Below the pieces are notes generated by a model that worked only from the letters and a program-made list of their open reading frames with translations, searched no databases and had not been told where the DNA came from. From Limisphaerales bacterium (lineage in GTDB: Bacteria; Verrucomicrobiota; Verrucomicrobiia; Limisphaerales; AAA164-E04), in contig OZ245740.1 of the NCBI GenBank assembly GCA_965227305.1, positions 1,747,371 to 1,811,370 of the forward strand: a stretch of 64,000 nucleotides of DNA, in the 5' to 3' direction. A program made the translations under genes and the position numbers. Positions 12,971-46,551 of the stretch are shown piece after piece. Numbering within the stretch: the stretch's first letter is position 1; each line of letters opens with the position of its first letter.

Positions 12971-13025
12971 TTCCTGGCTGGCAGGTGCTTCGGGGCTGTG
13001 GTTTTTTGGGGCGTCTTTCTTGCCC

Positions 13026-13053
13026 AACGGCTCGCGGGTACGCTCGCCCTACC
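13026..13053 (-). repeat. REP-like intergenic repeat unit
   Basis: It is identical to 135-162. It lies between the SUI1 gene and the true start of the PSCyt/DUF1553 gene. Confidence 0.8.
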
Positions 13054-13100
13054 GGGTGGCTTGCCACGTTGCGGTTGGGGAGTTACGCTCTTCTCATCCT

Positions 13101-15557: not shown

Positions 15558-15569
15558 GAACACTGGCTT

Positions 15570-26413: not shown

Positions 26414-26416
26414 GAT

Positions 26417-29400
26417 TCAAAGTTTACCCAATTTGACCTCGGTTTCAATATTCGGTTTTTGAGTCGCGGCGGGTCTACCGCGCCGGAATTGGAACTGGGG
26501 GCTTTGGATGAGCTCGACCACTAGGTCGGAGATCGAGGTTTTCTCGTTGACCGATTTGGCTAGCCGATCGATCAGGAGTTGGTCCGAGAGGCGTTCGCCT
26601 CGTCCGAGGGCGTACCCAACGAGTTTCCGAACAAGGTTCCGGTGAAAGAGGTCTGCATTGTCGCGGAGGTAGGTGTAGAGACCCGCCATGCCGTCAATCA
26701 CTTGCCCATTTGAGAGCGTGCCGGAGTCATCAATGGCTTGTCCGTCGCGATAGGATTCGCGCCAACGCCCAACCGGGTCGAAGTGTTCCAGCGCGAACCC
26801 GAGGGGATCGATTTTAGAGTGGCAGTTGGTACATTTCGGGTTTTGGCGGTGCGCCTCGAGTCGGGCTCGGACGGTGAGGCCGTCCGCCTGGACGTCATCG
26901 GCGGGAATCGAACCGGCGTCAGCGGGCGGCGGTGGCACGGGCGTGCCGAGGATACGGCGTAGAACCCAGTCCCCTCGTTTCACCGCGCTCGTTCGGAGTG
27001 GGGCCGAGGTTGAAGCTAAGATCGTTCCTAATTGGAGTAATCCGCCGCGGTGCTGGGCTTGTGTGCCTGAGATCCGTTCCGGCGTCGTGGGGGAGTTCTC
27101 AGGTAGATCGATTCCGTAGTGGGCTCCGAGTTCCGGATCTAGGAACGCGTAATCGGCATGCAGGATGTCGGCAAGAGGACGATCATGACGAACAATGTGT
27201 TCGAAGAACCGAATCGATTCCTCGTACAGCGCCGCTTTCAGCTGAGTCGTAAACTGTGGATAGCGCGAGGCATCGATTCCGCGAAACTCGTCGAAACGAT
27301 AGAACCCAAACCACTGGCCAAAGAACTCCGTGGCAAACCGTTCGGCTCGTTGATCCTTGAGTAGGCGGCGGGCTTGTGTCGCCAAGATCTTGGGATCGAG
27401 CAAGTCGCCCGAGGCCGCCGCGTTGCGAAGCTGGGTGTCGGGTGGCGAAGACCAGAGGAAAAACGATAACCGATTGGCGAGTTCGTAGGCCGTGAGTCGC
27501 TGGATCTCAGGAGAGGGGGCCGGGTTCTCTAATCGATAAAGGAATGCCGGCGCCATGAGGATCCGAGCCAACAGCGTGCGGATTGCCTGGTCATGATCCG
27601 CTTCAAATTCGGATCGCTGATGATGATAGAATGCCCGTAGGGTTGTTTGCTCGTCTGCAGTGAGCGGCCGTCGCCAGGCTCGATCCGCAAATTGGAGCGC
27701 GTCGTCCAAGTGCCGGTTGCTCGCTTGCGCGAGTTGCTCCTGCCGGGCTTGGTAGTCGCCCGTGAGTTGGGTCAGAAAGGGACGAGCCTTCTCCGAGATA
27801 CCTTCCATCCATGTGTCCGTGACGGAGTCGATTTCCGGTGGGGAATCGATGCCGTCCAGCTTTTGAGTGACGAACTGAAAGTACTGCTGATGGTAATCGA
27901 ATGCGGTCAGGAGATTGGTCCAGGCTTGGTCCAGTTCTTTGCGGGTTTCTGGGGAGAGTATGTGATGGGTTAAGAACTGATCATCTCGGTGATACTTAAT
28001 CACGTAGTGGAACTGGTTTCGTTCCGGGTTGTTGTAGGTGTTGTCGTAGGGCGCAGGTATTGGATCGCGGTCAGATGGGGCTGGCTCCCGATGCGAGACC
28101 TGGGGCAGGAGTTGGGCAAAGTCGGCGATCCCTTGCTGCCACTCGGGCAGCTGCGGGGACAGTGGGTCGCCGAGCAGGGCGGAGGCGCCTCCGGTTGAGG
28201 CGATCGTTTCGCCGGGGATCAGACCGTCGGTGATCGTGCACCGAACCAGGCCGTCACGATTTGGATCCGAATCAAGCCGTGCCTCGACTCGGAGTTCAGC
28301 ACTGGTGGCGCCGGACGGAACACGAAATTCAATATTCCATTGCTGGGCGCCCGTCATGACAAAACTGTCGTCGTGAATTGCATCGCCTCTTGGGTTTTTG
28401 CCAAAGCTTATCTGATCCGCTGATGCCGCCGTCACGTAACGCCGCAAAGGCCGGAATGAGCCACGTCGGGAGCGACCGCTGCGAAGCCGGATCGTGGGTT
28501 CCACCCAAAGTACCCGAGCGGCTGCTTCGGAACTAGAGGCGGGAGTGGTGGAGATTTCGAACCGAGCGATTTCCGCTCCTTCGGGCCAGTTGAGTCGAAC
28601 TCGAAACCCATGCGTGGGTTCCGGCTCGAAGAACTGGCCACTCAAAACGGCGGCCTCTTCGTCGTCACGGGTTGTTGCTGCCAAAGCTTTCTGCCAGGCC
28701 AAGGTGCGTTGGTAGAGGTTTCGGCAAGCCGCTTGGATTTCATTCACGACCGGATCATGGGCGTGGGTGGGCGTCGGAAGTTCGCGCCAGCGATCAATGA
28801 TATCGGCTGTTGGAAACGTGGGGGCGTCTTTCTGCAGGAGATCCCAGATATGGTTGAGAAAGATGGGCGAGAGATCGCGTTCATTTGCCAAGTCGTCCAG
28901 CTTCACCTGCGGTTGACCGAGACGCTCCCGGTGGCGGAACTGCCAGGCGGCAGCAAAGGCTCGTGGATACATGTCGAGTCCGAAGGCATCGGCGCCTTCA
29001 CCGGCTCCGGTTCGAAAACCGTGTTGCCGATAGAGCGCTTTGATGCGCTCGATGGATGCCAGTTCCTGTCCTGTCTTTCCGGGGTTCGTGACGAATTCGA
29101 GCGGGCCGGCCCCGATCAGGGCATGCGAGGCGACTTTTTTGGCGGCCTCCAAGTAGCGTTCGACGGTGGCATCTTGGACGAACTGGGCGTCCCCGACATT
29201 GGAAAAGCCTTCACCGCCGACGCCATCACTCCGTATCAGACGGTCAAGGTCCAAACTCAATCCCGTCAGATCCTGGATGGTGTAGTCATATTCCGCGCTG
29301 GTCAGGCGACGCAGTGTCACGGGACCGGGATCATTCGCCAGGGCGTCTCGGGATGCGGTGAGCCACGCTTGGAGATGGGTGACAATGGCCTGGCGTTCTT

Positions 29401-29692
29401 CGCTCGTCGGCTGAGGCTCGTCCTCCGGCGGCATCTCGCCTTCCTGCAAGAGTTCGATCGCTAGCTCCCAATCTTTAAAGTCATTGACCGCGTCTTGACG
29501 CTCAAGCAGGCCTTCGAAATTGATTTTGCCTTTGGCCTTCTTGTGATTGTGGCACTGGACGCAGTACTCGCTGACGAGCGCCTGGGCTGGCGGTGGAGAT
29601 GCGGCAGAAGTCGCAGCCGCGAGGATCATATAGATCCAAACGGCTGCAAAAAGCCCAGCCTGACGAAGGCCGGTCTGGTTGATCCGGAGCAT
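26417..29692 (-). CDS. DUF1592/DUF1595/DUF1587/DUF1588/DUF1585-type multi-domain protein with N-terminal cytochrome-c motif
   Basis: 1091-aa ORF with a signal peptide. CVQCHNHKKAKG (CxxCH) near the N-terminus and CTNCHSKIDPLGFALEHFD near the C-terminus. This is the canonical partner of DUF1552. Confidence 0.8.
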   Translation of the reverse strand: MLRINQTGLRQAGLFAAVWIYMILAAATSAASPPPAQALVSEYCVQCHNHKKAKGKINFEGLLERQDAVNDFKDWELAIELLQEGEMPPEDEPQPTSEERQAIVTHLQAWLTASRDALANDPGPVTLRRLTSAEYDYTIQDLTGLSLDLDRLIRSDGVGGEGFSNVGDAQFVQDATVERYLEAAKKVASHALIGAGPLEFVTNPGKTGQELASIERIKALYRQHGFRTGAGEGADAFGLDMYPRAFAAAWQFRHRERLGQPQVKLDDLANERDLSPIFLNHIWDLLQKDAPTFPTADIIDRWRELPTPTHAHDPVVNEIQAACRNLYQRTLAWQKALAATTRDDEEAAVLSGQFFEPEPTHGFRVRLNWPEGAEIARFEISTTPASSSEAAARVLWVEPTIRLRSGRSRRGSFRPLRRYVTAASADQISFGKNPRGDAIHDDSFVMTGAQQWNIEFRVPSGATSAELRVEARLDSDPNRDGLVRCTITDGLIPGETIASTGGASALLGDPLSPQLPEWQQGIADFAQLLPQVSHREPAPSDRDPIPAPYDNTYNNPERNQFHYVIKYHRDDQFLTHHILSPETRKELDQAWTNLLTAFDYHQQYFQFVTQKLDGIDSPPEIDSVTDTWMEGISEKARPFLTQLTGDYQARQEQLAQASNRHLDDALQFADRAWRRPLTADEQTTLRAFYHHQRSEFEADHDQAIRTLLARILMAPAFLYRLENPAPSPEIQRLTAYELANRLSFFLWSSPPDTQLRNAAASGDLLDPKILATQARRLLKDQRAERFATEFFGQWFGFYRFDEFRGIDASRYPQFTTQLKAALYEESIRFFEHIVRHDRPLADILHADYAFLDPELGAHYGIDLPENSPTTPERISGTQAQHRGGLLQLGTILASTSAPLRTSAVKRGDWVLRRILGTPVPPPPADAGSIPADDVQADGLTVRARLEAHRQNPKCTNCHSKIDPLGFALEHFDPVGRWRESYRDGQAIDDSGTLSNGQVIDGMAGLYTYLRDNADLFHRNLVRKLVGYALGRGERLSDQLLIDRLAKSVNEKTSISDLVVELIQSPQFQFRRGRPAATQKPNIETEVKLGKL

Positions 29693-31244: not shown

Positions 31245-32693
31245 CTAGGCAATTAAACTGTGGAGGACATGGCCACCAATGTCGGTGAGTTTGCGAACCC
31301 GGCCCGCGTGCACGAAGGTCAAACGCTCGTCTTCTAGACCTAGAAGGTCGAGGATGGTGGCATGGACATCACGGATGTGAATCGGGCTTCCCACGGATCG
31401 AAGACTGAACTCATCCGTCGAACCCGCCGTGGCGCCGCCCTTCACATTGCCACCGGCCATCCACATGCAGAGCGCGTAGGAATTGTGTTCCCGACCGGGG
31501 GTTTTGCCTACGGTGGTGCTATTCCGGAACGGGGTGCGCCCCATCTCTGAGGCCCACACAACCAAGGTTTCATCAAGTAGCCCGTTGGTCTTGAGGTCCT
31601 GCAGAAGTCCGGCGATCGGTCGATCGACCTCAGCACAGTGTTTGATCATGCCGCCACCGACGTCTGAATGATCGTCCCAACTGTGTTTGCCAATTTGGAC
31701 CCCATGCACGAGCAGACTGTAGCGTACGCCGCGTTCGACTAGGCGCCGAGCTAAGAGACATTGCCTGCCAAAGCCGGCCGTTTTTTCGTCGTCCAAACCG
31801 TAGAGCTTACGAACTGATTCGGGTTCCCGGCTGATATCAACGATCTCGGGCGCGGCTGTTTGCATACGAAAAGCCAATTCGTAGGCGGCGATCCGAGCTT
31901 CGAGTTCAGATTGGTGGGCCCGAGATTGGAGGTGGGACTGGTTGAGTCGCCGTAAGACATCGAGTTCGGTTTGTTGATCGGCTGCGGAGACATTGGCGGG
32001 TCGATCCAGATTCAGAATCGGCACGCCTTCCGGTCGCAAGAGCGTACCTTGGTGGGCCGCGGGGAGATAACCATTCGCCCAAACAGCGGCGCCGTTGACG
32101 GGAGCACCTCGGGGATCCTGAATGACCACGTAGCCCGGCATGTTTTGATTCAGACTTCCCAGACCGTATTGGATCCACGAACCGATCGAGGGGCTTCCAG
32201 GGAACTGGCTGCCCGTATTGACGTGGTAGGTTGAAGGACCGTGGTTTTGGTTGTCCGTTTTGATCCCGTGGACAAAGGCGAGGTCATCGACATGATGGGC
32301 CAGGTGGGGGAAGAGTTCGGATAGATAACGGCCGGTCTGGCCGTGGCGTTGGAATTCAAATTGGCTGCCGATGCACACGTGGGGAAAAGAGAGACGGCCC
32401 TGTAACTCACCGGAGATCGTGGGCGTGCCGGGAATGGGTTTGCCGTGCAGTTCCCGAAGGCGCGGGCGGTATTCGAATGCGTCCATCTGGCTGACACCGC
32501 CTTGCATGAAGAGGAAGATGCAATGTTTCGCCTTGCGAGGGAAATGGGGCTGTTTCGGCGTCAGCGGATTGCTGGTTTGAGTCGACGCTTGGAGTTCGTC
32601 TCCGAGCAATCCGGCAAGTCCCATTGCACCGATTCCGTTCCACGTACGATTTAGGAATTGGCGGCGAGAAAGGCTGGCTTGGGATGGGTCCAT
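31245..32693 (-). CDS. DUF1501 (sulfatase-like) protein with twin-arginine-type leader
   Basis: 482-aa ORF. SRRQFLNRT leader, GREHN, RDVHATILDLLGLED. It lies immediately downstream of the DUF1553 gene on the same strand. Confidence 0.85.
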   Translation of the reverse strand: MDPSQASLSRRQFLNRTWNGIGAMGLAGLLGDELQASTQTSNPLTPKQPHFPRKAKHCIFLFMQGGVSQMDAFEYRPRLRELHGKPIPGTPTISGELQGRLSFPHVCIGSQFEFQRHGQTGRYLSELFPHLAHHVDDLAFVHGIKTDNQNHGPSTYHVNTGSQFPGSPSIGSWIQYGLGSLNQNMPGYVVIQDPRGAPVNGAAVWANGYLPAAHQGTLLRPEGVPILNLDRPANVSAADQQTELDVLRRLNQSHLQSRAHQSELEARIAAYELAFRMQTAAPEIVDISREPESVRKLYGLDDEKTAGFGRQCLLARRLVERGVRYSLLVHGVQIGKHSWDDHSDVGGGMIKHCAEVDRPIAGLLQDLKTNGLLDETLVVWASEMGRTPFRNSTTVGKTPGREHNSYALCMWMAGGNVKGGATAGSTDEFSLRSVGSPIHIRDVHATILDLLGLEDERLTFVHAGRVRKLTDIGGHVLHSLIA

Positions 32694-32704
32694 AAACGCT
32701 TCCT

Positions 32705-35641
32705 TCAGTCGAGGTAAACGAATTCGTTGGTGTTAAAGAGAATTCGGGCCAGCCGCGGGAGTTGTTCCGTCGTGGCAAAAGGTTGCAGCGTTGCGAGTTC
32801 TTCCGGCGTTGGGGGCCTGCCGAGCGCACATTGAAACGCCCAGTGGATGCGGGTGTCGGTAGTTTCGCCGCCTTCATTCGCAATTCGTTTGGCGAAGTAT
32901 TGAGCTTCCTCGTTGACGAGTTCGCCGTTGAAGAGGGTGAGTGCTTGTAGTGGTGTGGTTGAGGTGCGTCTTACCGGACGGGTGTCTTCGCAGACGAGGG
33001 CGTCAAAGTTCTGCATGAAGGGCATGCTGAGAGTGCGTTGTTGGTAAACGTAGATGCTGCGTTTGCGAGCGCGCTTGGAGCGATCCGTGGCCCACTTGTT
33101 GCGATCGTATTTGACTTGGTCTTCGATGCCGCCTGGTAAGGCTGGGAAGATCGGAGGGCCGAAGCGTTCAAGATTGAGTCGGCCGCTGATCGCTAGCACC
33201 GCGTCCCGGATGGCTTCGGCTTCCAGTCGGCGAGGCGGGAAATGCCACCAGAGACGATTCTCCGGATCTCGTTCTGCGGCTCCTGGAGCGTCGGATTGTG
33301 AGGCTTGGCGGTAGGTCGCTGAGGTCACGATCAATCGATGTAGGTGCTTCAATCGCCATTCATTGGCGACGAGTTCGTTGGCCAGCCAATCGAGCAACTC
33401 CGGATGGGAAGCACCGCCACTCAATTGGCCGAAGTCGCTGGGGGTCTTGACGATGCCCTGTCCAAAGTGCCAATGCCAAAGGCGGTTGGCGATTACGCGG
33501 GCGGTCAAGGGGTTCTCCGGGCTTGCGATCCAGTTGGCCAAGGCCATGCGACGACTGCGAGTAGGCCAGCGTTTGAACGGATCGAGGCGGATCGGTGCTG
33601 GGCTATCCGAGCCGGTGATGCAGGTTGGAAATCCGGCCTCAACCACCTCGCCGGGATTGTCGTATTCCCCACGGATCATCACCCGAGAAACCGGCGTCCC
33701 GGGTTCGAAGGGTGGGCCGTAGGAATGTCTTAGAGACATTGCCATGGGTTCGAGCCGTTTGAGTTGTTGCCGGTGAAAGCGCTCGGCTTGGGCCAGATAC
33801 TGGTAACGACGTCGCTCGTCGTCGGTAATGATGGAGGCTCCCTCGTCCGCCAACACGTCCTGCAGGTTGGAACCCTCGGCTTTGCTCGGGTTGGTAACCG
33901 TGCTTACGAATGCGCCGTTGCCGCCTACTGTGAAACCGTATCCCTCAGCGCGACCTGCGACTGAATAGGCAACGACAATAGCACCTTGTTGGTGCCTAAG
34001 GAATGCCGCATCGTCGGCCTGTGCTGTTAGGAAATCGTCTTGGAACCGCACCGTTGGAAGAGATCCTCCATCAAGGACCCCGATAATCGGTTGGAGAGCC
34101 GGATCAGCTTGCTGGAGTAGAATTCCGGCGACCTTGTCCCGCCAATGAAAGAGTTTGCTGACGCCGGTGGGCGAGGGTGTCGCCGGATCGTTATCCGGAT
34201 CTGAGGCATCGAGCCAGAAACTGAGTCCAATGAGCGGGGGCGATTGCCCTTCCGAACCTGGCGGCTTTTCTTTGCTTTTGAAGTAGGTGGCAACTTGGAC
34301 TCGTTCCGATCGCGTCAAAGGGTGGTCATAGATTAGCACCTCTGCGATATCTCCGTGGAAGGCGTTGCCTTTGGGGTCCGGGGTTCCGTCCGTGTTTTGA
34401 CCGATGCTGATGTGGGTCGGGTTCGGTAAATCGCCAAACCAGTGGCCAGCGTTCGAGCCGCTTACGGTAATCTGTGGGGCTTCCGGTTCTGCGCTGTCGA
34501 AGATGGACCAAGACTCACCGTCCGCATTAATGATTGAGAAATGCGACTTACCGTCACTCTTGTTCGCTTTCTCTAAGACGTAGTTGTTGCCGAGCTTGGC
34601 GCCTAGGGATTGGATGCCAAGGCCGGTTTGCGGCTGCGGGACGCGGGATTCAAGTTCGGCCTTGAGAGATTCAAACGCAGATTTGTCCGAGGCTATGGCA
34701 GCCCGAACCGCGTTTCGTTGTTGCTCGGCCCACTCTTCTTCGCCTTCGCGATAAAACTTGGCCGGGAGCGGCCCACCAATCTGGTAAATGTCACCGGGCT
34801 CGGGGCGCTTCAGCCAGACGGTCGAAAAGAACGCTTTCAGGCGGTAGAAATCTTTCGTGGGGATGGGATCATACTTGTGGTCGTGACACTGAGCACACCC
34901 GACGGTTAGGCCAAGGAAGACGGAACTTACAGTGGAGGTCATCTCGCTCAGCATTTCGTGGCGGGTTTGGTCTCCTCTGGGTTCCGTGAAGGGTGCCAGT
35001 CGCAGGAAGGTAAGGGCTACGGTGCGTTCGGCGTCGGGAGTGGGGAGATCGCCGGCGCCCATGATCTCCTTAAATTCGTCTCCGGCGATCTGTTCGCGTA
35101 TGAAAAGATCGAACGGTTTGTCTTGATTGAAGGAATCAATGACGTAGTCGCGATACCGCCAGGCATGGGGGAGATCGGGGTCGCCTTCATAGCCGGCTGT
35201 GTCCGCATACCGTGCGAGGTCGAGCCATTTTCGGGCCCAATGCTCGCCATATCGCTCGTCCGCGAGCAACGAATCGACCAAAGTTTCGTAAGCCTTGGGA
35301 CTGTTGTCTTGGAGGAAGGAGTCCATTTCCTCAGGGCTTGGAGGGAGACCGATGAGGTCGAAATACAAACGCCGGGCAAGGATCCGGCGATCGGCGGGAG
35401 GCGCTGGTTGGAGTGCTTCCTGGTGGAGGCGCTCAAGTATGAAGGCATCGATATCGTTGTGCGGACGATTCTCGCCAAGCCAAGCCGGTGGTGTTACGGC
35501 GGCACGGGGGTTAAATGGCCAGGGAGCGGGCTCGCCGTTCTGTGCGGCAAGGAGGGGGAACGCGCCTAGAAGGTAGGCGCTAGCCAATCCAATTCGGGTA
35601 CGGAGTCCGCCTAAAGCGAATCTTGGAAGTTTCCAGGCCAT
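32705..35641 (-). CDS. DUF1549/DUF1553 (PSD1) protein with a central LamG/concanavalin-like insertion and no N-terminal cytochrome-c motif
   Basis: 978-aa ORF. IDAFILERL (DUF1549), CAQCHDHKYDP and a C-terminal DUF1553-like region. The central ~250 aa contain FHGDIAEVLIYDHPLT, which is LamG-like. Confidence 0.8.
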   Translation of the reverse strand: MAWKLPRFALGGLRTRIGLASAYLLGAFPLLAAQNGEPAPWPFNPRAAVTPPAWLGENRPHNDIDAFILERLHQEALQPAPPADRRILARRLYFDLIGLPPSPEEMDSFLQDNSPKAYETLVDSLLADERYGEHWARKWLDLARYADTAGYEGDPDLPHAWRYRDYVIDSFNQDKPFDLFIREQIAGDEFKEIMGAGDLPTPDAERTVALTFLRLAPFTEPRGDQTRHEMLSEMTSTVSSVFLGLTVGCAQCHDHKYDPIPTKDFYRLKAFFSTVWLKRPEPGDIYQIGGPLPAKFYREGEEEWAEQQRNAVRAAIASDKSAFESLKAELESRVPQPQTGLGIQSLGAKLGNNYVLEKANKSDGKSHFSIINADGESWSIFDSAEPEAPQITVSGSNAGHWFGDLPNPTHISIGQNTDGTPDPKGNAFHGDIAEVLIYDHPLTRSERVQVATYFKSKEKPPGSEGQSPPLIGLSFWLDASDPDNDPATPSPTGVSKLFHWRDKVAGILLQQADPALQPIIGVLDGGSLPTVRFQDDFLTAQADDAAFLRHQQGAIVVAYSVAGRAEGYGFTVGGNGAFVSTVTNPSKAEGSNLQDVLADEGASIITDDERRRYQYLAQAERFHRQQLKRLEPMAMSLRHSYGPPFEPGTPVSRVMIRGEYDNPGEVVEAGFPTCITGSDSPAPIRLDPFKRWPTRSRRMALANWIASPENPLTARVIANRLWHWHFGQGIVKTPSDFGQLSGGASHPELLDWLANELVANEWRLKHLHRLIVTSATYRQASQSDAPGAAERDPENRLWWHFPPRRLEAEAIRDAVLAISGRLNLERFGPPIFPALPGGIEDQVKYDRNKWATDRSKRARKRSIYVYQQRTLSMPFMQNFDALVCEDTRPVRRTSTTPLQALTLFNGELVNEEAQYFAKRIANEGGETTDTRIHWAFQCALGRPPTPEELATLQPFATTEQLPRLARILFNTNEFVYLD

Positions 35642-35735
35642 GGATCAGTGAAGTTTGCCTGGGCTAGGGCCCTTTGTCGAACGTGAATTACGGGCATCGG
35701 ACAACCGAGAGCCGTTCTGAGTTTTAGGTCCGGAA

Positions 35736-35769
35736 GGTGGGGCGAGCGTACCCGCGAGCCGTCGGCACG
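35736..35769 (+). repeat. REP-like intergenic repeat unit
   Basis: ggtggggcgagcgtacccgcgagccgtcggcacg. The upstream tccggaagg extension is shared with other copies (tccggaNggt). Confidence 0.8.
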
Positions 35770-35906
35770 AACGTAGTCGCTATCCGGGAAAGCGTCATGG
35801 CGCACTAGGATAGAACCCCCATAGTCCCAAGGATTGGTGATTGCTGAAGGTGCGCAATGAAGAGCTTGCCTCAGTCGTTCACCGCGGTGACGTCGGCTCG
35901 CGGGTA

Positions 35907-36083
35907 TTAGACCGTTTAAAAGGTCCTTTTCCACCTGCATGTAAGAGAGTGTGAAAGCGACAGCTTCGCTCTCGCACTCCAAAAAACGCTCGATATGCGG
36001 ACGAAATATGGAGTGCGAGAGCGGAGCTGTCGCTTTGCACACACCGCGATGGAGTTGCCAACCAGACTTTTTAAACGGTCTGG
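35907..36083. mobile_element. 177-bp MITE with terminal inverted repeats, flanked by TA inside a REP unit, carrying the hairpin module (35951-36040)
   Basis: cgtcggctcgcgggTA | TTAGACCGTTTAAAAGGTCC ... AGACTTTTTAAACGGTCTGG | TAcgctctccccacc. Joining the flanks with a single TA regenerates the REP unit (reverse complement). It has the same length as the 29849-30025 copy. Confidence 0.8.
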
Positions 36084-36322
36084 TACGCTCTCCCCACCTT
36101 CCCAAAGTGTGCCCTTGAGTCTTGCCGGGCTTAGGGATTGTTACGGGTTGGCGGGGACGTCGCTGGACAAGAGGGAAATGTACATGGTATTCGTTGGCTC
36201 TCGAAGGGGGCTGGACCATCCTGTTTTTAGTTTTGGGTCCGCTCGTTCCTCGGCATGAAGTCTTTGTATTGTCAGAAGCAACTGAGTGGCTTTGATGGAG
36301 CGCCGTCACTTGATGGCGTTGG

Positions 36323-39300
36323 GTGCTGGGGCAACTTCACGTCATGACGGAGGGCGGTTTGGATTCTCAACGGGACTCAGACGCGTCCTGGCGTCGACAG
36401 GTGTTGGATTTTGGTCGCGGACGAACTAGATCGGTCGATGGCGATTTGCCGTCTTTGTTCGAAGCGCAGGTGGAAAAAACACCCGATTCGGTAGCCCTCG
36501 TTACGGAGTCTGGCCCGGTTTCTTGGCGCACCTTGAACGAGCGCGCCAATCAGATCGCCCATGCCTTAGTCGCACGAGGGGTCGGTTCGGGGATGCTCGT
36601 TACGGTGGTATTAGAGCGTTCGGTCGATTGGGTGGCTGCTTTACTGGGCGTTATCAAAACTGGGGCGCCTTACCTGCCGATCGATCCCGCGAACCCGGTG
36701 GCAGATTTTGCGGCCATTGTGACGGAATCGGCGTCGGCTTTGGTTCTGACGCGGGCAGCCTACGAGCAGGAGTTCCCCGGAAGCGTAGACTGCCTGGTCT
36801 TGGATTCGCCCACAGTCCTGGCTGGGTTCGAGAGATTGCCACCCACCAACCTAACGGATCGGGAACGCCTTTCTGCGCTGGACCCGGATCATCCCGTGTC
36901 TGTGATCTTCACCTCCGGCTCCACTGGCGTGCCAAAAGGGGTTGAGGGGACGGTACGCAGTCTACTGAATCGCTTGGAATGGGGCTGGCGGGAGTTTGCC
37001 TTCACTAAAGGTGAGTATGGCTGCCTGAAGACGTCGCCGGGTTTCGTAGATCACTTGGCTGAACTGTGGGGTCCTTTGTTGCGGGGAGTCCCGCTGGTGA
37101 TTGTGCCGGATCAGGCCGTGAATGACTTGCGAGCGTTCGTCGAGCTGATCGCGCGCTATCCGATCCGTCGTATCCTTTTGGTCCCCTCGCAACTCCGTGG
37201 AATCCTTCGTTTGGAGGCGTCGGTGTTGAAAAAACTCGCTGAGGTGAAACACGTGTTCTGTAGTGGGGAAACGTTGTCGGTGGGGTTGACGCGCGCTTTC
37301 TTCGAGCTATTGCCTCATGCCACTCTATACAATGTCTATGGGGCGACAGAAGTGACTGCGGACTGCACTTGGCATCCCGTTTCGCAGCACGATGTCTTAA
37401 CGTATTTTCAGCCCCCGGCCGAAACCTCACCGGCCGGACATGAACTAGTTTCTTGGTACGAGGTTCCGCCCAGGGCAGAGATCACCGCGTCCCACACGGC
37501 TCTCACGGATTTGAATGAGCATTTTGGCAAGTCGGAAGTCCCCTTGGAGCCACTGTCGTTAAAGGCCTACAAACAACATTTGGCAAAGGATGTGATTCCT
37601 TACTCGGTGGATACCAACTCCGCCAAGTTTATGGGGCACATGACGTCTGCCTTGCCGAGCTTTATGCACGATTTCAACCAACTGATCACTCGGTTGAATC
37701 AGAATCTGGTCAAGGTGGAGACCTCAAAGTCACTCACCTTGCTGGAACGGGAAACTTTGGCCATGCTGCATGGAACCTTTTATCAGCGAGGGGACGCCTT
37801 CTATGACCAAGCCAGGAAGGATCCCGATACGGCACTCGGATTGTTTGTGTCCGGCGGCTCCTTGGCGAACTTGACCGCGTTGTGGTGTGCTCGAAATCGG
37901 GCGCTTCCGGCCAAGGAAGGCTTTGCCGGTGTGGCAGAGGAGGGCATGTTGGCGGCGCTCAAGCATCACGGGGCTGACAGTGCCGTCATCCTGGGCACGC
38001 GGTTGCTGCATTATTCCGTGCAAAAGTCGGCGAGCCTTCTGGGGCTCGGGAAGCAACAGGTCATAGCAGTCGGTCAAACACCAAACGGGGCGATGGATAT
38101 CGAAGACCTGAAGCGGCGTTTGCAGTACTGTGAAGACCACAATCTCTGCGTCTTGGCCGTGATCGGGATCGCTGGTGCGACCGAGACCGGGGCCATTGAT
38201 CCGTTGCCGGAGATTGCCGCGATAGCGAAAGCGAAGGGGATCCACTTTCATGTGGATGCTGCTTGGGGGGCGCCACTGTTTTTCTCGCAACGTTACCGAC
38301 ACCTGCTGAAAGGGATCGAACAGGCGGATTCGATTACTATGTGCGGTCACAAGCAGTTTTATCTGCCAATCGGCGTGAGTCTTTGCCTCTTTCGTGATGC
38401 TACCGTGCTCCACGCGATAGCGACTTCGGCTCGATACCAGGCTCGGGAAACCACATTTGACTCCGGGCGTTGGAGCCCCGAGGGAACCCGGCCCGCCACC
38501 TCGTTGTATTTCAATGCGGCGCTGAATCTCTTTGGGCGTCGGGGCTATGGCCAGCTCGTGGAACACGGGATGCGCAATGCCGAATACTTGGAGAAGCGCA
38601 TTCAGGAAGCGGAGGAGTTCGAACTGCTGGGAACTCGCCGTATCAATATACTGAACTTTCGCTACGTTCCGGTCGAGTTTCGAGGCCGGTCGAAGGCTGG
38701 AGACTTGACGGTTGAGGAAAATGCTCGGATTGACGAATTCAATATTCAGTTGCAAGAGCAGCAGTTTTTGGAAGGGCGCGGGTTTATTTCCCGGACCCGC
38801 GTCGGTTACCCAGACGCGTCGAGCGCCGTGGAAGTGGAATCCTTGCGGGCCGTCATGGCGAATCCGTTGACCAACCCGACAACGATCGATCAGGTGCTGA
38901 GGGATCAGTTGCGAATCGCTCAGCGTGAGTTTGAGAGCGAACGTGGGGAGGCCTGCGATTTGATGGCCGTTGAGACCGTTGTCTCTGCTGGTGACGAGGA
39001 GAATGAAGGGACAGGGCTCGATGAAGGAATCCCGATCGGAACGCCGCTCCCAAATTGCCAGATCTATGTCCTAGATGCTGAACAGGACCTGGTGCCGCCG
39101 GGAGAAATCGGCGAACTCTACGTAGCAGGTTTGGGATTGGCGCGGGGATATTGGAAGCAAGCGAATCGAACGGTTGAGAGTTTTGTTCCCGACCCATTTG
39201 TGACTGAGCCTGGGGCTCGGATGTATCGAACGGGAGATATGGGGCGATGGCGTCGTGATGGCGTGCTTGAGTTTCTGGGACGCGCGGATGACGAGGTGAA

Positions 39301-39589
39301 GATTGCTGGGTTTCGAGTGGAATTGGGTGAGGTGGAAACGGCCGTTGCCAAGCTTCCGGGTGTAGCACAAGCAGTCGTCATTGCGAAAAAAAGGACGGAT
39401 GGGGATGTCGCAATCCTTGCCTACGTAATCGCGACGCAGGAGCAGGATGGGATGGTTGAAGCCTGTCGGGCGCAGCTTGAGGCTACCCTCCCGTATTACA
39501 TGGTGCCGGAGCGTATTCGTGTGGTGGATCACTTTCCCGTAACGCTCAGCGGTAAGGTAGACCGGCGTGCGCTGTTGACGATGGTCTGA
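36323..39589 (+). CDS. Stand-alone adenylation (AMP-binding, NRPS A-type) domain interrupted by a PLP-dependent group II decarboxylase domain
   Basis: 1088-aa ORF with a GTG start (the first in-frame ATG is at 36344). A-domain motifs A1-A5 occupy the first ~350 aa (LGVIKTGAPYLPIDP, VIFTSGSTGVPKGV, GFVDHLAEL, NVYGATE). Decarboxylase hallmarks lie in the middle (GGSLANLTALW, HVDAAWGAP, MCGHKQF). A6-A10 are at the end (GELYVAGLGLARGYW, YRTGD, GRADDEVKIAGFRVELGEVE, LPYYMVP, LSGKVDRRAL). Confidence 0.8.
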   Translation: MLGQLHVMTEGGLDSQRDSDASWRRQVLDFGRGRTRSVDGDLPSLFEAQVEKTPDSVALVTESGPVSWRTLNERANQIAHALVARGVGSGMLVTVVLERSVDWVAALLGVIKTGAPYLPIDPANPVADFAAIVTESASALVLTRAAYEQEFPGSVDCLVLDSPTVLAGFERLPPTNLTDRERLSALDPDHPVSVIFTSGSTGVPKGVEGTVRSLLNRLEWGWREFAFTKGEYGCLKTSPGFVDHLAELWGPLLRGVPLVIVPDQAVNDLRAFVELIARYPIRRILLVPSQLRGILRLEASVLKKLAEVKHVFCSGETLSVGLTRAFFELLPHATLYNVYGATEVTADCTWHPVSQHDVLTYFQPPAETSPAGHELVSWYEVPPRAEITASHTALTDLNEHFGKSEVPLEPLSLKAYKQHLAKDVIPYSVDTNSAKFMGHMTSALPSFMHDFNQLITRLNQNLVKVETSKSLTLLERETLAMLHGTFYQRGDAFYDQARKDPDTALGLFVSGGSLANLTALWCARNRALPAKEGFAGVAEEGMLAALKHHGADSAVILGTRLLHYSVQKSASLLGLGKQQVIAVGQTPNGAMDIEDLKRRLQYCEDHNLCVLAVIGIAGATETGAIDPLPEIAAIAKAKGIHFHVDAAWGAPLFFSQRYRHLLKGIEQADSITMCGHKQFYLPIGVSLCLFRDATVLHAIATSARYQARETTFDSGRWSPEGTRPATSLYFNAALNLFGRRGYGQLVEHGMRNAEYLEKRIQEAEEFELLGTRRINILNFRYVPVEFRGRSKAGDLTVEENARIDEFNIQLQEQQFLEGRGFISRTRVGYPDASSAVEVESLRAVMANPLTNPTTIDQVLRDQLRIAQREFESERGEACDLMAVETVVSAGDEENEGTGLDEGIPIGTPLPNCQIYVLDAEQDLVPPGEIGELYVAGLGLARGYWKQANRTVESFVPDPFVTEPGARMYRTGDMGRWRRDGVLEFLGRADDEVKIAGFRVELGEVETAVAKLPGVAQAVVIAKKRTDGDVAILAYVIATQEQDGMVEACRAQLEATLPYYMVPERIRVVDHFPVTLSGKVDRRALLTMV

Positions 39590-39879: not shown

Positions 39880-42800
39880 GTGAAGCACCGGATATTGGCA
39901 TCAATGGATTTTGGCTGGGGACGTCATCTTCCCTTTGCGGCCCCGTTGCTCGTGAAACGATGCTTGGCATCATGGAGTTCCCTTGCGTTACTGGCCTTTC
40001 TTCTGAGTCCCAGCATCATTCTTGCACAGCCGGTTAATGTTCCTGCCTTTCTGAGTGACCTGGATGGAGACGCGCGGACTACCGTTCGCGACTTCGTGAT
40101 TCTTCAGAACCACCTCAGCGGAGACACTATTTTGCAGGAAGATCGGGTGTTCGCAGCCGATCTCAACCAAGATGGTGTGATTGATGGCCTTGATGCCGAT
40201 ATCTTACTCGATATTGTTATGGGTCGCCTACGCCCGCCGGCGACTCCGTTGGCCCGAGTGTTGACGACCTCACCGAAGGGCGGCGAGGACGGGGTCGCTT
40301 TAAGCAGGGAGACCATCGTAAGGCTGAGTTTGCCGCTGGCGGAAGATCTAGTCCTGCCGGACAATGCGATTCGTGCGGAGTTCGCCGGACAGGTGGTGCC
40401 AGGGCAACCCCATCTTAGTGCGGATCGACAAACGGTTACCCTGTTTTATCCAAGCGGTTTGCCGGCGTCGGCCCGTGTCCGGGTGACAATCGATGGCGGC
40501 TTGATGCGGGATTTACGAGGCTCACTCGTGGATGCTGATGGAGATGGCGTTCCCGGTGGAGAGCTGAGTGTCGATTTCGACACACTTACCGTCACCAGTC
40601 TTCCGGATACTTCGGTTTGCGGGCGCATTTTTGCTTCGGACCTGGCTGTTAGCGAGAACGGGAGCCGGTTCGTGAATCGTCCCTTAGCCGGTGTCACGAT
40701 TCGAGTCGATGGGACGGACCGGCTCGTGGTGACGGACGAAAATGGCAATTTCCGGTTGGAAGAGGCCCCGGCTGGAGAATTTTTCGTGCATATCGATGGC
40801 CGGACCGTCCCGGACGTCGTCCCTGCGGGCGCCTATTACCCCAATGTTGGCAAAGCTTGGGTATCTGTGCCCGGCATCGAAACCAACATCGGCGAGATTT
40901 ATCTGCCCCTGATTCCTGCGGATGCTTTGCGGGAGGCTTCGACGGAGTCGGACACGGTATTGGAATTCACGCCCGAGTTTGTGGTTCAGAATCCGAAATT
41001 CAACGGGGTCCAAGTCGTTGTGCCGCCGAATTCCTTGTTTCGTGATGATGGGACTCGCGGCGGGCGAGTGGGGATCGCACCCGTTCAGCCCGATCGGCTT
41101 CCCGGGGAGGTCGCAAGTGATCTTCCCATCCAAGATGTCGTGACCATTCAGACCGACGGGGCTACGAATTTTGATATTCCCGCACCGGTTTGCCTGCCCA
41201 ATCTGGAAGATCCGCTCACAGGCCGACGCTTGGGACCGGGAGAGCCAGCCGCGCTTTGGAGCTTTAACCATGACTTGGGACGTTTTGAGATCGTGGGATC
41301 CATGACCGTCAACGAAGACGGGAGCCTGATTTGCACGGATCCGGGGGTTGGCGTATTGGCGCCGGGCTGGCATGGCAGTAGCACGGGAACTCAGGGAGAG
41401 GGGGGAACCTTGCGTCATGTCATTCTCGATCGGAGCAAACAAGAGAAACCCGGGAAAAATGACCCTTCCGCTGATCCGGACAATAAGGTGACGATTCCCT
41501 GCCCGGACAATCCAAACCGGTATGTGAACCTTTACAAAAATCGCCGCCGTCCCCAGTCCAATCCCGAGGCTAAAGGCGGGGATCCGGTGTACCTGCACTC
41601 CGGAGAGTTTTATGAGAATATGGTGGATTTGCGGATTGCAGGGCGCGGTATGGACTTCATCTGGAGTCGCAAATATCGATCGGTAACGGGACGGCCAACC
41701 GTTCAGGGCAACAATTGGGACTATTCTTACAACATTTTCATTCGTGCCGAGGGGAATGATTTTCTCTTGTGTGACGGGAACTCCAGAGCGGATATCTACA
41801 CGTTGCAGGATTCCGGCGTTTGGACAGCTCCGGGCTTTTTCCGAACTCTCGAAGCGAATCGGGACGGGACTTATACCTTGCGATTTGAACACGGCGGGCG
41901 GTGGGTGTTTCACCCCGTGGACGGGCGCCCGGAGTCCGGCCGGATTCTCATCAGCGAGGAGCGGAACGGGAATCAATTGCGGTTCCGATATGACTCCCAA
42001 GGACGGCTCTCCGGAATCGTGGACTCGCTGGATCGTTTGATTGAAGTGTTCTACAACGGGGACGGATTCATTCGCGAGGTGCGTGACTTTGCGGGACGAT
42101 CGATTCGTTATGAGTATTTCGGTCGAAACGATCCAGACGGCAATTTTGGCGATCTTCGATCCGTGACCTTGCCGAGCGTCACGGGAACGCCCAACGGGAA
42201 CGATTTCCCAGACGGTAAAACAACGACCTTCACCTACTCAACCGGACACTCAGATGCCCGATTGAATGGGAACCTCCTCACGATCACCGACGGGAGGCGC
42301 AACGATCCGAATGACCCCGCCTTTGAGCAAGGTCCGTATCTGCGCAATGAATACGCGCCGACAATCGACCCGGAAGATGTCAACTTCGATCGGATCATTC
42401 GACAGGTTTGGGGCGATCCGGATGATATTCTCGACTATCACTACACGGCGCTATTGCCGTCGAACGCCAATCGCAGGGCGGTTAACAAGACCATCGTGAA
42501 CGATCGTCGCGGATTGGTGATGGAATACCTCTATGATGAGGCGAATCGGCTCGTTAGTTATCGAGAATTCACCGGGTTTGCCGTTCCGGATCAAGTCACA
42601 ACGGAAACCGACAATCGGCCTACTGGAAAACTCAGAGCCACCGATCCCGACTTTTTTGAAACCGTACACGAGTGGAACGCGGATCACTTACTAGTGCGAA
42701 CGATTCAGCCGAACGGTACGATCATCGAAAAAGTCTATGAAGGGGATATCAACCCCAATGCTGGCCCGCGAACCCGGTCCAATCTGGTTGCAACGCGCTT

Positions 42801-45800
42801 GCTTCCCGGGAGCCATCGACCGGCAGGGGATCAAGTGGTCATCGAGGAATTCTACGAATATGACACCGCGTTCGCGGGCTGCTGTGGTTTCAATTTCGTC
42901 ACGAAGTATACCGATGCTCGGGGGAATACTACCACGCACGACTACGATGAACGAGGTAACCGGATCCAGACTATCCATCGGGTGCCTTCCATCATTCATC
43001 GGTATGAGTATAACGAGTTTGGTCAGCTCTCCGCCGAGGTCTATCCGGACAACGACGGCGTTCGCCGGCGAGACGAGTGGGCCTACTATGAGGAAGGTCC
43101 TCAACGCGGATACCTGCGTCAGATAACTCGGGACGTGGATGGTTTCGCGCTGACCACGGTCATGGACTACGATCGCGTGGGCAATCCCGTCGCGACAACG
43201 GACGCCAAAGGCAATACCCAAGAGTTCGTGTTTAACCAACTGGATCAAATGGTGCGTGAGATCTCACGGCCGGTATCAGCGACCCTAAACGTCCGCTATG
43301 TTCAGGATTACTTTTACGATGCGAACAACAACTTGATTCGAGTGGATGCGCCCAATGTCGACCACCTTGGGGATGTCGGTAGCAATGCTTCATACACCAC
43401 GACCTATGAATACGAGATCTTGAACAATCTCATTCGAACGGCGCAGGAGATACGCGAGGGTGAGTTCCGAGTAACCGAGACTGTATACGACGCGAATCGG
43501 AATCGAATCTTGATGCGGTACGGCGAGGCGACCAACGGCAACCAAACCGACAATACGACGAGCTGGGATTTCGATGAGCGTGACTTGGTGATCCGTCTGA
43601 TTCAAGGGAAGGGAGGAGCGGATCAATCGAGCTTTGAGTTCGACTACGATCCGAACGAAAACCTGATTGTGGAGCGGTATGGAATCGAGGACGCCAAGCC
43701 TCAAATCACGTCTCGAATTTTTGATGGCTACGATCGGCCCGTGGATGTCACGGATCCGATGGGGAATCGAACCACCTACGAATACGACGCGAATCACAAT
43801 CTCGTGCGACACGTGAAGTATGGGGAACTGAATGATCAGCCGGGTAGTGCCGGCAATGTGAAACTGTTTGCGGAAAATGCGAGCTATGATCCGTTAAACC
43901 GTCTGACCCGGACGGATACCGAATTCTTTGAAGTTGGGACCGGACGGCCATTGGGCGACGGACTTTCGACCATGCAGTATCGGTATAACAACAGTAGTCT
44001 GTTGGTGGCGACGATCGACGATAATGGGAACCGCACGGTACGAGACTATGATTCGTACTACCGACCTCGCCGGGTCGTCGACGCACTTGGTAACGAGGTG
44101 ATCTATGACTATGATCAACTGTCAAATGTTGTCCGGGTGACAGAGAGAGACCTGCCCGACTCCGGAGGTGAGGCAGAGGTTTATGTGGAACGATTCGATT
44201 TCGATCATCTGAACCGTGTGATTCGGTCCATCGATTCAATTGGTAATACTTCGGAGCTCGGCTACGACTCCCGGAATAACTTGACCTACAGGAGCGATGC
44301 GAACCGCGTTACCCCGAACCAACCAGGGAATATCGTTCGCAATGAGTTTGATGGTCTCCGGCGCCATATAGCCACGGTGTATGAACTAACAGCCGATGGC
44401 CAAGGCGGCACGCCCACTGGGACCATCCGGACCGAAACCGTATTTGATCACTCAGATAGAGCCGTCGGCCGCATTGACGGAAATGGCAATCAAACGACCT
44501 ATACCTTTGATGGGCTTAATCGAATGACGGGAACGAGGTTTGCGGATGGGACGACAGAAGAGCGGACCTACAACGCGCATTCGAATCCGATCATGTGGGT
44601 CGATGCGAATGGCACTACGATCGCGACTGAGTATGACGAGCTGAATCGCAAACGACGATGCGAAATCACACCCGGTGCTGGGGTGTCGAGCGATACGACG
44701 TTTGAAGTTTTCGATTTTGACGGATTTAGCCGACTGCGTCGGTTTGCGGATGATGATTCTTTGGTTGAGAGAGAATACACGTCTATGTCAGAGATTCTTC
44801 GAGAATCGTTAAATGATGTCGTTACCTCGGCCGAATATGACGGTATGGGGAATATGCTACGGTGTGTGTACCCGTCGGGCTTTGAAACGCTCATGTCCTA
44901 TGACGGGATCAATCGCCTGACTCGTATAGATGACCGTCTTGGATTGATCGCCGATCCGAGCTACGTGGGGCGCCATCGTACGAAGCAGTGCGTGCTGGGG
45001 AACGACACCGTCACCTCTCATGAGTATGATAGGGATCGGCGTCGAATCGGTATCGAGCACCGAATGCCGGGAAGCGGGGTGTTTGACCAACGACGCTTCG
45101 CTTGGGATAGCATGGACAATAAAATCCTGCACCGTGACGAATTGTCGGGAGAGAGCCTCGAGTTTGCCTACGATTCTGTCTACCGATTGACGTCAAGTGG
45201 GCTTAGTGATACGCGGCAGGCCTATCACTATGATTCTGTTGGGAATCGCACGCGAGTTGATGGCGGGGCGTTTTCCGGAAGGTATGAACTGGATGCGGCA
45301 GTTGACGGTCCGGCAGATCGGCAAGTAAATCAGTACACCGTCACTCCGTCTGGGATTCGCCGCTACGATGCCAAGGGCAATTTACTGACAGTGGGCGATG
45401 CGCAAGAATCTTTCACTTACGACTATCGCAATCAGTTGGTTGCCTTTGCGAATCCAAGCCTGGGGCAAAAGAGCACCTATCGATACGATGCTTTAGGGCG
45501 CCGGATTGAGCGCAGTTTTGGCTCAGGACAGACGGTTAAGTACTACTATCAAGGGTCCCGAGTCCTTGAGGAGCGTGATGCGGCCGGTCGCATGAATCGT
45601 CAGTATGTGTATGGCCGTTACATTGACGAGGTGGTTAACATGCGGACGGATCAGGAGAGTTTCTACTATCATAGCGACGACACCTTCAACGTTCGTAAAA
45701 TAACGGATAGTAGTGGGGCCGTGGTTGAAAGCTATGACTATGATGATTTCGGCATGCCTGTTGTTGCCAATGGTGAGGGACTATCGGTAGGTGAATCTCA

Positions 45801-46551
45801 AATTGGGAATACCTTGTTGTTTAATGGGCGGCGATTTGATGTTGAGACGGGGTTCTATTTTTACCGATCTCGCTACCTTGACCCACGGGTCGGCCGGTTC
45901 ACAAGTCGAGACTATATCGGCACATGGGGAGATCTTGGTAACATGGGGAACGCGTTTTCCTTCGTAGCGAATAATCCGAGGACCTTGCTGGATCCAACCG
46001 GAATGGAGCCACTCGACGGCGAACGGCGGCCGTGGGATAAAGATACGCCTACGGGAACGCAGGGGCACTTTCATTGGCGGCCGTTGCATGGTGAGGTAGA
46101 GAATGGGTGGGTAGAGTGGACCACGCGGAGTGCAGGTTGGTGGTTCAGCGGCTTACCTGAGGAGGTTAAGATGAATTGGATTTACGCCCATGAACACTAC
46201 TTTGAGGGCACCTACGATGAATCGAAGCCGAGGGATGGCCACATTGGTTTTGGCGGGGAAGACCCCGAGTATCTATCGGAATACAACGAGCAGAGTCCGG
46301 GCTCATATTCGGATGATGTCATGCGGGCGGCGCGGGACATGATTGATAAGGACTTTACCGACGGGAGCTATGGGATTCCCTTCCATAATTGCCAGCTTTA
46401 TGCTGACGAATTGCGAAGGTGGTATGACTTGTTCTTGAAGGCTGTTTGTGAAGAATCGTCCACGAGCTTATCGAAGAAAGACAGGTGGTTTATCCGAGAG
46501 CTTTGGGTGAGTCGGTTTGGTGACGTCGACATCGTTAGTGAAAAGGAGTAG
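39880..46551 (+). CDS. RHS/YD-repeat polymorphic toxin with Sec signal, N-terminal dockerin-like module, Ig/carboxypeptidase-regulatory-like domains, RHS core and a divergent 181-aa C-terminal domain
   Basis: 2223-aa ORF with a GTG start. Hydrophobic leader [18 protein letters not shown]. Dockerin-like paired Ca loops ([20 protein letters not shown] / [20 protein letters not shown]). VCGRIF...[10 protein letters not shown]...TDENGNFRL (CarboxypepD_reg-like). Dozens of YD repeats (..YDANGN.., ..Y.YD..). RHS-associated core [33 protein letters not shown]...[31 protein letters not shown], ending in LLDPTGM. Confidence 0.9.

Follow-up and report, generated by a model that had tools for sequence, protein, structure and literature searches.

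Adenylation (A) domains of nonribosomal peptide synthetases (NRPSs) can host a second catalytic domain in one of their loops while their two halves still make up one fold, as in TioS, ColG, CesA/B and IndC/BpsA, where the insert lies between motifs A8 and A9 or A2 and A3. For decarboxylases, the published prototype is JamL, the Lyngbya majuscula polyketide synthase (PKS)/NRPS subunit of the jamaicamide pathway (UniProt Q6E7J8; Edwards et al. 2004), with the domain order KS-AT-ADH-KR-CP-C-HxxPF-A-PLP4-A-CP, in which PLP4 is a Pyridoxal_deC domain (Milano et al., PMC3870968). Here we describe a free-standing protein of this kind, encoded at positions 36323-39589 of a 64,000-nucleotide stretch of a Limisphaerales genome (contig OZ245740.1; “the window” denotes this whole stretch). 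Like JamL, to which it is compared by published layout alone, it carries a Pyridoxal_deC domain inside an A domain, here denoted A(deC). Its insert follows motif A5, unlike those of TioS and its counterparts. Whereas the A(deC) of JamL belongs to a KS-AT-...-C-A(deC)-CP megasynthase, the window copy has no C domain, CP or assembly-line partner in the 64 kb. A previous reading made from the sequence only knew of no precedent for a decarboxylase insert or for an A5-A6 insertion site; the JamL layout (PMC3870968) and the recurrence of the window junction in 137 species genomes and about 85 protein clusters overturn this. The architecture is already known, real and widespread, and the window copy is unusual mainly in standing alone without a carrier or condensation partner.

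In other systems activation and decarboxylation are divided between separate proteins. The carrier-dependent β-alanine and γ-aminobutyrate (GABA) pathways VinN-VinL-VinO, FlvN-FlvL-FlvO, AfcQ-AfcK-AfcP, CtaD-CtaE-CtaF and BtrJ-BtrI-BtrK (PMC11350588; PMC12186527) share with the window protein the combination of ATP-dependent activation and pyridoxal 5'-phosphate (PLP)-dependent α-decarboxylation of Asp or Glu; in them it yields a β-alanyl or GABA unit in activated form. There, however, distinct fold-type III decarboxylases act on the carrier-bound substrate, whereas the window protein is a single chain with a fold-type I, group II enzyme. In these pathways Arg331 of VinN and Arg311 of AfcQ bind the α-carboxylate of Asp, and AfcQ does not activate β-alanine (PMC12186527). 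Kasumigamide MakasB-A1, which is β-alanine-selective in vitro, differs from the window protein in being an ordinary, uninterrupted C-A-T protein of 118.6 kDa. In Drosophila, Black (a group II aspartate decarboxylase) and Ebony (an NRPS-like, β-alanine-activating A-T protein) carry out in sequence the two activities proposed here, Asp to β-alanine and then β-alanine adenylation; unlike the window protein, they are two eukaryotic proteins, and Ebony has a carrier domain and an amine-selecting domain.

The window gene is a single open frame of 1088 codons on the forward strand, organized as follows:

36323-39589 (+), whole open reading frame, an A domain split by a PanP-like decarboxylase; GTG start, 1088 aa plus stop
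36446-37396 (+), N-terminal A core, aa 42-358, with motifs A1-A5 and nine of the ten code residues (Pfam, TIGR01733, own profile)
37046-37054 (+), A4 pocket V242-D243-H244 (Stachelhaus 235 = V, 236 = D); D243 and H244 invariant in the family
37331-37363 (+), motif A5 NVYGATE followed by A346 and D347 (Stachelhaus 330 and 331), directly before the insert (translation, alignment)
37385-38962 (+), insert resembling PanP, the group II PLP-dependent aspartate 1-decarboxylase, aa ~355-880, ~525 residues (TIGR03799, PF00282, Foldseek)
38351-38353 (+), PLP Schiff-base lysine K677 (SITMCGHKQ), invariant in inserts and free PanPs
38963-39022 (+), linker aa 881-900 leading back to the A domain, of low confidence and poorly conserved (AlphaFold2); its N-side counterpart is aa 368-377
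39029-39574 (+), C-terminal A part, aa 903-1084, with the PIG strand, A6-A8, the Asub subdomain with A9, and A10 (own profile, AMP-binding_C, NCBIfam)
39554-39556 (+), codon of the A10 lysine K1078 (translation)

An identical public protein (P0001) is annotated from an ATG at 36344, which gives 1081 aa. All motifs quoted in the sequence-only reading are found in the translation where it placed them, among them NVYGATE from 37331, HVDAAWG from 38249 and the K677 codon, and the stop codon lies four codons past LSGKVDRRAL. An artefact of assembly, or a frameshift joining separate genes, was considered and rejected, because about 50 database homologues are colinear with aa 42-1084, each in a single high-scoring segment pair, and because GC content stays at 0.55-0.58, flat over both insert junctions.

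Pfam AMP-binding (PF00501, 233.8 bits, cut-off 29.9) matches the protein in two stretches, the better of which (aa 46-353) covers profile positions 1-332 of 384, and AMP-binding_C (PF13193) matches aa 1003-1078 with 44 bits (cut-off 24.5). The NRPS amino-acid-adenylation model TIGR01733 scores 353.9 bits (cut-off 317.4) and matches aa 67-358, and NCBIfam models find second stretches at aa ~900-1086. A hidden Markov model (HMM) built from 40 uninterrupted NRPS A domains also matches twice: aa 42-358 correspond to its positions 2-310, and aa 884-1084 to its positions 295-494. Since these ranges complete each other, the two stretches are complementary halves of one A domain. Core motifs A1-A10 are present in order, and the A3 residue K205, the TGD of A7, R987 of A8 and K1078 of A10 are invariant across the family.

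The structural prediction agrees with this division. In an AlphaFold2 model computed from a 79-sequence alignment (mean predicted local distance difference test, pLDDT, 87.8; predicted template modeling score 0.75), the only long internal segments of low confidence (pLDDT <50) are aa 368-377 and 881-900, the two linkers that bracket the insert. The insertion point is a surface hairpin loop after A5, running from the strand at aa 347-353, which holds pocket residues 330/331, to the “IPIGTP” strand at aa 906-908 (strands by DSSP). Foldseek aligns whole A-domain structures over the gap (4D4I, TMt 0.88; 1AMU, TMt 0.77), the nearest solved relatives being canonical NRPS A domains and not those of the VinN type; the same search against the PDB returned no entry with the combined A-plus-decarboxylase architecture. 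These results confirm that the window protein is an NRPS-type A domain with a complete decarboxylase nested in the loop after A5. They bear out the earlier proposal of one polypeptide with two catalytic domains, both apparently intact, in which the A domain is split after A5; the catalytic residues of both domains are invariant family-wide.

What kind of decarboxylase is the insert? Pyridoxal_deC (PF00282) covers aa 422-781 with 146.5 bits (cut-off 27), and the predicted fold aligns to the group II decarboxylase 4RIT/4RLG with TMt 0.83-0.85 and a root-mean-square deviation of 2.7-2.9 Å. The best NCBIfam model is TIGR03799 (PanP), with 488-491 bits over positions 42-522 of 522, so that about 40 N-terminal profile positions are unmatched. 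The runner-up decarboxylase model, diaminobutyrate decarboxylase, scores 159-163 bits, more than 300 bits lower. When the insert alone was searched against a collection of 5.8 billion proteins, the best matches were free-standing proteins of 520-590 aa, 44-53% identical over 95-100% of the insert, many of which are named PanP by NCBI (in Nostoc, Oscillatoria, Pyrinomonadaceae, Blastocatellia and Myxococcales). Identity to the other inserts of the family is 44-46% (60% for P0002, the closest relative of the window protein), no higher than to free PanPs. In an alignment of the window protein, 40 family members and 38 free PanPs (79 sequences), about 50 decarboxylase columns are invariant, including H439, H563, D645, H676-K677-Q678, Y705 (probably the catalytic-loop tyrosine) and R842. 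Inserts and free PanPs are told apart by two columns only (810, I/L; 841, F/L), each a conservative change at which the window protein sides with PanP. Unlike a free-standing PanP, the insert is embedded in another domain; it shows no systematic substitutions. Because its active site appears unchanged relative to free PanPs, it is most likely still an L-aspartate α-decarboxylase that takes free aspartate as its substrate. Group II decarboxylases form obligate dimers whose subunits share active sites, and for this reason the window protein probably dimerizes with itself through its insert.

A neighbor-joining tree of the decarboxylase region places the window protein and P0002 among the free PanPs, apart from the other inserts. 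We do not accept this as proof of an independent fusion, because the free PanPs were picked as best matches to the insert itself, because neighbor joining is a crude method and because the site of insertion is the same within about three residues family-wide.

It is conceivable, if improbable, that the same logic applies to another substrate pair, for example Glu to GABA, cysteine sulfinate or cysteate to hypotaurine or taurine, or 3-methyl-Asp as precursor, with the A domain activating the product. The TIGR03799 score lies below the curated equivalog cut-off of 606.1, “glutamate decarboxylase” is the Joint Genome Institute (JGI) annotation of many close free-standing relatives, and B6db puts the JamL insert in the diaminobutyrate decarboxylase group (PMC3870968). 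Against these points stand the wide gap between TIGR03799 and every other decarboxylase model and the PanP naming of the nearest free-standing relatives; taurine and hypotaurine, moreover, have no carboxylate to adenylate.

For the A domain, the ten specificity-code positions were derived by anchoring on motifs A4, A5 and A10. The window code is VDALFSVADK, and the pattern [VI]DA[LVM][FI]S[ILV]ADK holds in 40 of 41 family members, irrespective of phylum and of whether the protein is free-standing or modular. The earlier reading had taken the Asp of GFVDHLAEL as the anchor expected for α-amino-acid substrates, but position 235 is Val (Val or Ile family-wide), with Asp at 236 and 331, which does not fit the Asp235 of α-amino-acid pockets. 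An Asp one residue later than 235 is a mark of A domains that activate β-amino acids, as known from work on VinN and other β-amino-acid enzymes, and the pocket of the window protein accordingly looks to be of the β-amino-acid type. Read by code positions, neither the ten-residue code nor the segment after A5 contains Arg or Lys, and D331 is invariant; VinN-type A domains, which reject β-alanine, instead have an Arg for the α-carboxylate of Asp. The family code can be likened to that for β-alanine, which we take to be VDWVISLADK, and not to the Glu, GABA or diaminobutyrate codes. Some members agree with this presumed reference at eight or nine of ten positions (VDAVISVADK, VDALISLADK and the VDAVISLADK of the uninterrupted P0424). 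H244 (37052-37054, position 237, in F-V-D-H) is invariant in a 20-sequence alignment, at a site where a small residue is usual in A domains of the ordinary type (FDxS).

Uninterrupted relatives carry the same code. P0424, a protein of 3272 aa with A domains near aa 1497 and 2585, lacks the interruption and has the code VDAVISLADK. It shares 50% identity with the interrupted cyanobacterial protein P0003 along the C domain plus the N-terminal half of the A domain, and the alignment of the two stops exactly at the left junction, “...AADITCFEVNL”. Its segment “DAVKTDLEE.IEK.LRSGTIPIGKP” resembles the right-hand linker “DDLKTDMGEALEEYLKKNTIPIGKP”, and P0424 has the appearance of a protein from which the decarboxylase was cleanly excised, the right-hand linker being kept. 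Uninterrupted modules with the same code and the signature FVDHVAEIF...AD also share a gene cluster with an A(deC) module in two Pedobacter loci (L027, L031), in Chryseosolibacter (L047) and in one further locus (L055):

L027, 2724-8504: same-code uninterrupted A domain
L031, 2667-8441: same-code uninterrupted A domain
L047, 5162-10936: same-code uninterrupted A domain
L055, 16824-23096: same-code uninterrupted A domain

On these comparisons the decarboxylase behaves as a cassette that is present or absent with no apparent change in A-domain recognition, a pattern that fits a diffusible, free β-alanine as the substrate of the A domain.

The family is broad. In a scan of one genome per GTDB species, relatives with the same junction were found in 137 species genomes. 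The 80 loci retrieved from these comprise Cyanobacteria (Moorena, Calothrix, Scytonema, Hyella and others), Gammaproteobacteria (Thiohalocapsa, Thiomargarita, Parabeggiatoa, Legionella, Alteromonas, Microbulbifer), Betaproteobacteria (Massilia, Undibacterium, Jeongeupia), Bacteroidota (Pedobacter, Chitinophaga, Aquimarina, Fulvivirga), Fibrobacterota, SAR324 and Cloacimonadota. HMMER, run exhaustively on 1.84 billion cluster representatives (50% identity) with a 181-aa query over the A5-to-PanP junction, gave 30 matches at E <= 1e-30, and about 85 of the best 150 cover the whole junction. The closest relative of the window protein, P0002, is 50% identical, and same-junction modules of Moorena and other cyanobacteria are homologous at 39-42% identity; JamL by name was not among the matches listed by a protein search seeded with a Moorena module. 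From these alignments the window protein is an orphan, free-standing form of a large, colinearly inherited family.

Sorting of 88 loci by ad hoc C- and T-domain HMMs (T, the thiolation or carrier domain) separates several layouts. C-A(deC)-T modules, mostly within multimodular NRPS or PKS-NRPS genes, account for about 41, and about nine are C-A(deC) proteins ending within 30 residues of A10. A further 14 are truly free-standing, namely the window protein, P0002 and proteins from Thiohalocapsa, Thiothrix, Thiotrichaceae, a Roseivirgaceae metagenome-assembled genome (MAG) and several gammaproteobacterial MAGs. Roughly one locus in four thus has no T domain in cis, and since such forms are common the decarboxylase cannot require a carrier domain on its own chain. 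Among the C-A(deC) genes, those of the Fibrobacter type lack a T domain, end 13-22 aa past A10 and are directly followed by a conserved gene of about 240 aa:

L007, 14569-15297: conserved ~240-aa gene
L034, 8084-8848: conserved ~240-aa gene
L036, 5596-6351: conserved ~240-aa gene
L038, 13123-13860: conserved ~240-aa gene
L071, 8692-9420: conserved ~240-aa gene

In L007 this gene encodes the phosphopantetheinyl transferase (PPTase) Pfam domains ACPS and AASDHPPT_N, which links a PPTase tightly to the T-less module; no carrier domain is detectable in the Fibrobacter-type proteins or within +-10 kb of them. Two members depart from these layouts. P0054 (858 aa) is degenerate, with A3 lost, the code altered to VEIVFSLVP- and the C-terminal A half gone, and P0292 (1760 aa) joins formyltransferase domains (PF00551/PF02911) to A(deC) and T as an initiation-type module.

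How would the two catalytic centers work together? From these comparisons we infer which substrates are used, in what order the two reactions run and what the acceptor is. The reading we hold to be the most probable, though well short of assured, is that the insert converts L-Asp to β-alanine and the A domain then adenylates it for an acceptor that is not encoded nearby. In a first step the insert, probably as a homodimer, would decarboxylate free L-aspartate. The A domain, with its pocket VDALFSVADK, would next convert the β-alanine to β-alanyl-AMP, and the β-alanyl group would finally be taken over by a thiol or amine, the likeliest acceptor being a phosphopantetheinyl carrier protein encoded at another place in the ~10.5-Mb genome. 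The insert would then be a PLP enzyme most likely acting on a free precursor before adenylation, unlike the inserts of the TioS type, which act on a carrier-tethered product; the window protein has no T domain. Of the coupling of amino-acid activation and decarboxylation proposed by the sequence-only reading, the bifunctional enzyme stands, with both domains apparently intact, but the order does not, decarboxylation first being the likelier.

Alternatively, the A domain may load L-Asp through its side-chain (β) carboxylate onto a carrier in trans, and the insert may decarboxylate the tethered aspartyl thioester to β-alanyl-S-carrier. The protein would then be a fused equivalent of VinN/VinO, FlvN/FlvO, AfcQ/AfcP or CtaD/CtaF. 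We regard this as unlikely, yet it deserves serious attention. The shifted Asp236 fits an Asp bound through its β-carboxylate equally well, and most family members have a T domain in cis. All other A-domain inserts that we know of (methyltransferase, ketoreductase, oxidase) act on a carrier-tethered substrate. Separate enzymes run the same chemistry in the vicenistatin, fluvirucin, closthioamide, butirosin and AFC-BC11 pathways, several of which make β-alanine by decarboxylation of carrier-bound Asp (PMC11350588; PMC12186527), and decarboxylation of a phosphopantetheine-bound substrate by an embedded Pyridoxal_deC has been the subject of speculation (Milano et al., PMC3870968). Four observations nevertheless lead us to favor the decarboxylation of free L-aspartate. 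The known on-carrier decarboxylases are of fold-type III, whereas the insert is a fold-type I PanP, the same as free-acting PanPs at conserved positions. The invariant D331 is acidic and, compared by code positions, neither the code nor the segment after A5 offers a basic residue like Arg331 of VinN or Arg311 of AfcQ. Some 25% of the loci lack a carrier domain in cis, and close uninterrupted relatives keep the same code.

In a more radical form of the decarboxylation-first reading, the free-standing protein would be a carrier-independent aspartate-to-β-alanyl ligase, as the sequence-only reading had suggested in general terms. Here the nested PanP would hand β-alanine directly to the A pocket, and a soluble amine or thiol would capture the β-alanyl-AMP, giving β-alanyl amides (carnosine-like or Ebony-like) or β-alanyl-CoA with no phosphopantetheinyl carrier involved. 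Direct hand-over is suggested by the position of the insert, whose supporting hairpin makes up the floor of the pocket. We consider this form rather doubtful. If it were true, the C-A(deC) and A(deC) proteins without a T domain, which recur in the family, would be an enzyme class of their own and not broken NRPS modules.

Several points weigh against the order of free decarboxylation followed by β-alanine activation, beginning with the on-carrier precedents given above. Neither the presumed β-alanine reference code nor the assignment of the JamL module to jamaicamide's β-alanine unit, which we likewise assume, was confirmed by literature search. The TIGR03799 score is below its equivalog cut-off. 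No acceptor or carrier is visible in the 64 kb, and the gene context is not shared with P0002. The searchable literature yielded no biochemical data on any family member and no characterization of a decarboxylase-interrupted A domain, and the function of the JamL insert was described as not clarified in the 2013 analysis (PMC3870968).

The genomic surroundings of the window gene are unrelated to peptide synthesis. Own T- and C-domain HMMs run in any frame over the 64 kb, together with Pfam on open reading frames of >=200 aa up to ~58 kb, found no T, C, TE or PPTase, the best T-domain match having E = 0.32. This upholds the earlier statement that neither the reading frame nor its neighbors contain a carrier, C or TE domain. 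On the same open reading frames no biosynthetic Pfam domain was found besides the A(deC) gene. Upstream lie divergent, planctomycete-type genes (PSCyt2/PSD1, DUF1501, an enolase-superfamily enzyme, PSD2-5/PSCyt3 and DUF1552), and downstream runs a series of large genes of the surface or secreted type, with a dockerin/cohesin pair beside an RHS toxin-like protein (all by Pfam):

12894-16976 (+) and 31245-35641 (-), PSCyt2/PSD1 plus DUF1501 pair, two copies
25046-29692 (-), PSD2-5/PSCyt3 plus DUF1552 pair
32705-35641 (-), PSD1/PSCyt2 gene
39880-46551 (+), 2223-aa protein with dockerin, Big_5, DUF6531 and RHS repeats
46517-49198 (+), 893-aa protein with TSP3, Big_7, Big_5 and LVIVD repeats
50464-52302 (+), 612-aa cohesin-domain protein

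A 232-aa frame with a GTG start at 35611-36309 (-) has no Pfam match and runs into the beginning of the PSD1/PSCyt2 gene, and so is probably not a real gene. In that case the divergent intergenic region would measure about 680 bp, with no sigma-70-like promoter match. A promoter and terminator scan around the A(deC) gene gave 0 promoter-like sites, and its terminator-like sites were about as frequent as in shuffled sequence.

Could the gene be a decaying remnant, an orphan fragment of a former NRPS cluster that is now functionless? Its isolation amid unrelated PSD1/PSCyt2, DUF1501, RHS and dockerin/cohesin genes would suit such an origin, as would the neighborhood of P0002, which is unrelated to that of the window and also without NRPS genes, and the existence of a degenerate member, P0054. 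This is nonetheless very improbable, for the frame is fully open over its 1088 codons, the catalytic motifs of both domains are all intact and match the family invariants, and the same free-standing form recurs in at least 14 loci of several lineages. The free-standing genes of Chromatiales and Thiotrichales have lineage-specific neighbors, none in common with the window or P0002. In six loci (L003, L004, L005, L023, L024 and L026) the A(deC) gene adjoins a P-type ATPase gene (E1-E2_ATPase plus Hydrolase), and in five loci it lies next to a PALP (PF00291) enzyme gene. L004, from a JGI metagenome, has a CN_hydrolase gene and an AMP-binding-PP-binding-KS-AT PKS gene within ~5 kb; the Thiohalocapsa loci L023, L024 and L026 have a homologous A-T-containing gene in the same position as in L004, with a FAAL-ACP-PKS nearby in Thiohalocapsa. 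The Chromatiales/Thiotrichales A(deC) locus may be a conserved small biosynthetic locus.

With relatives in 137 species genomes, the A(deC) family is far larger than the lone JamL example. The 1081-aa free-standing protein offers a minimal two-domain system of soluble size for JamL-type modules, in which pre-activation supply of β-alanine and on-carrier decarboxylation could be told apart. The answer would help genome mining to predict the substrates of A domains with this code, and the protein is a potential compact part for bringing β-alanine into engineered peptides without recourse to the pantothenate pool of the host.

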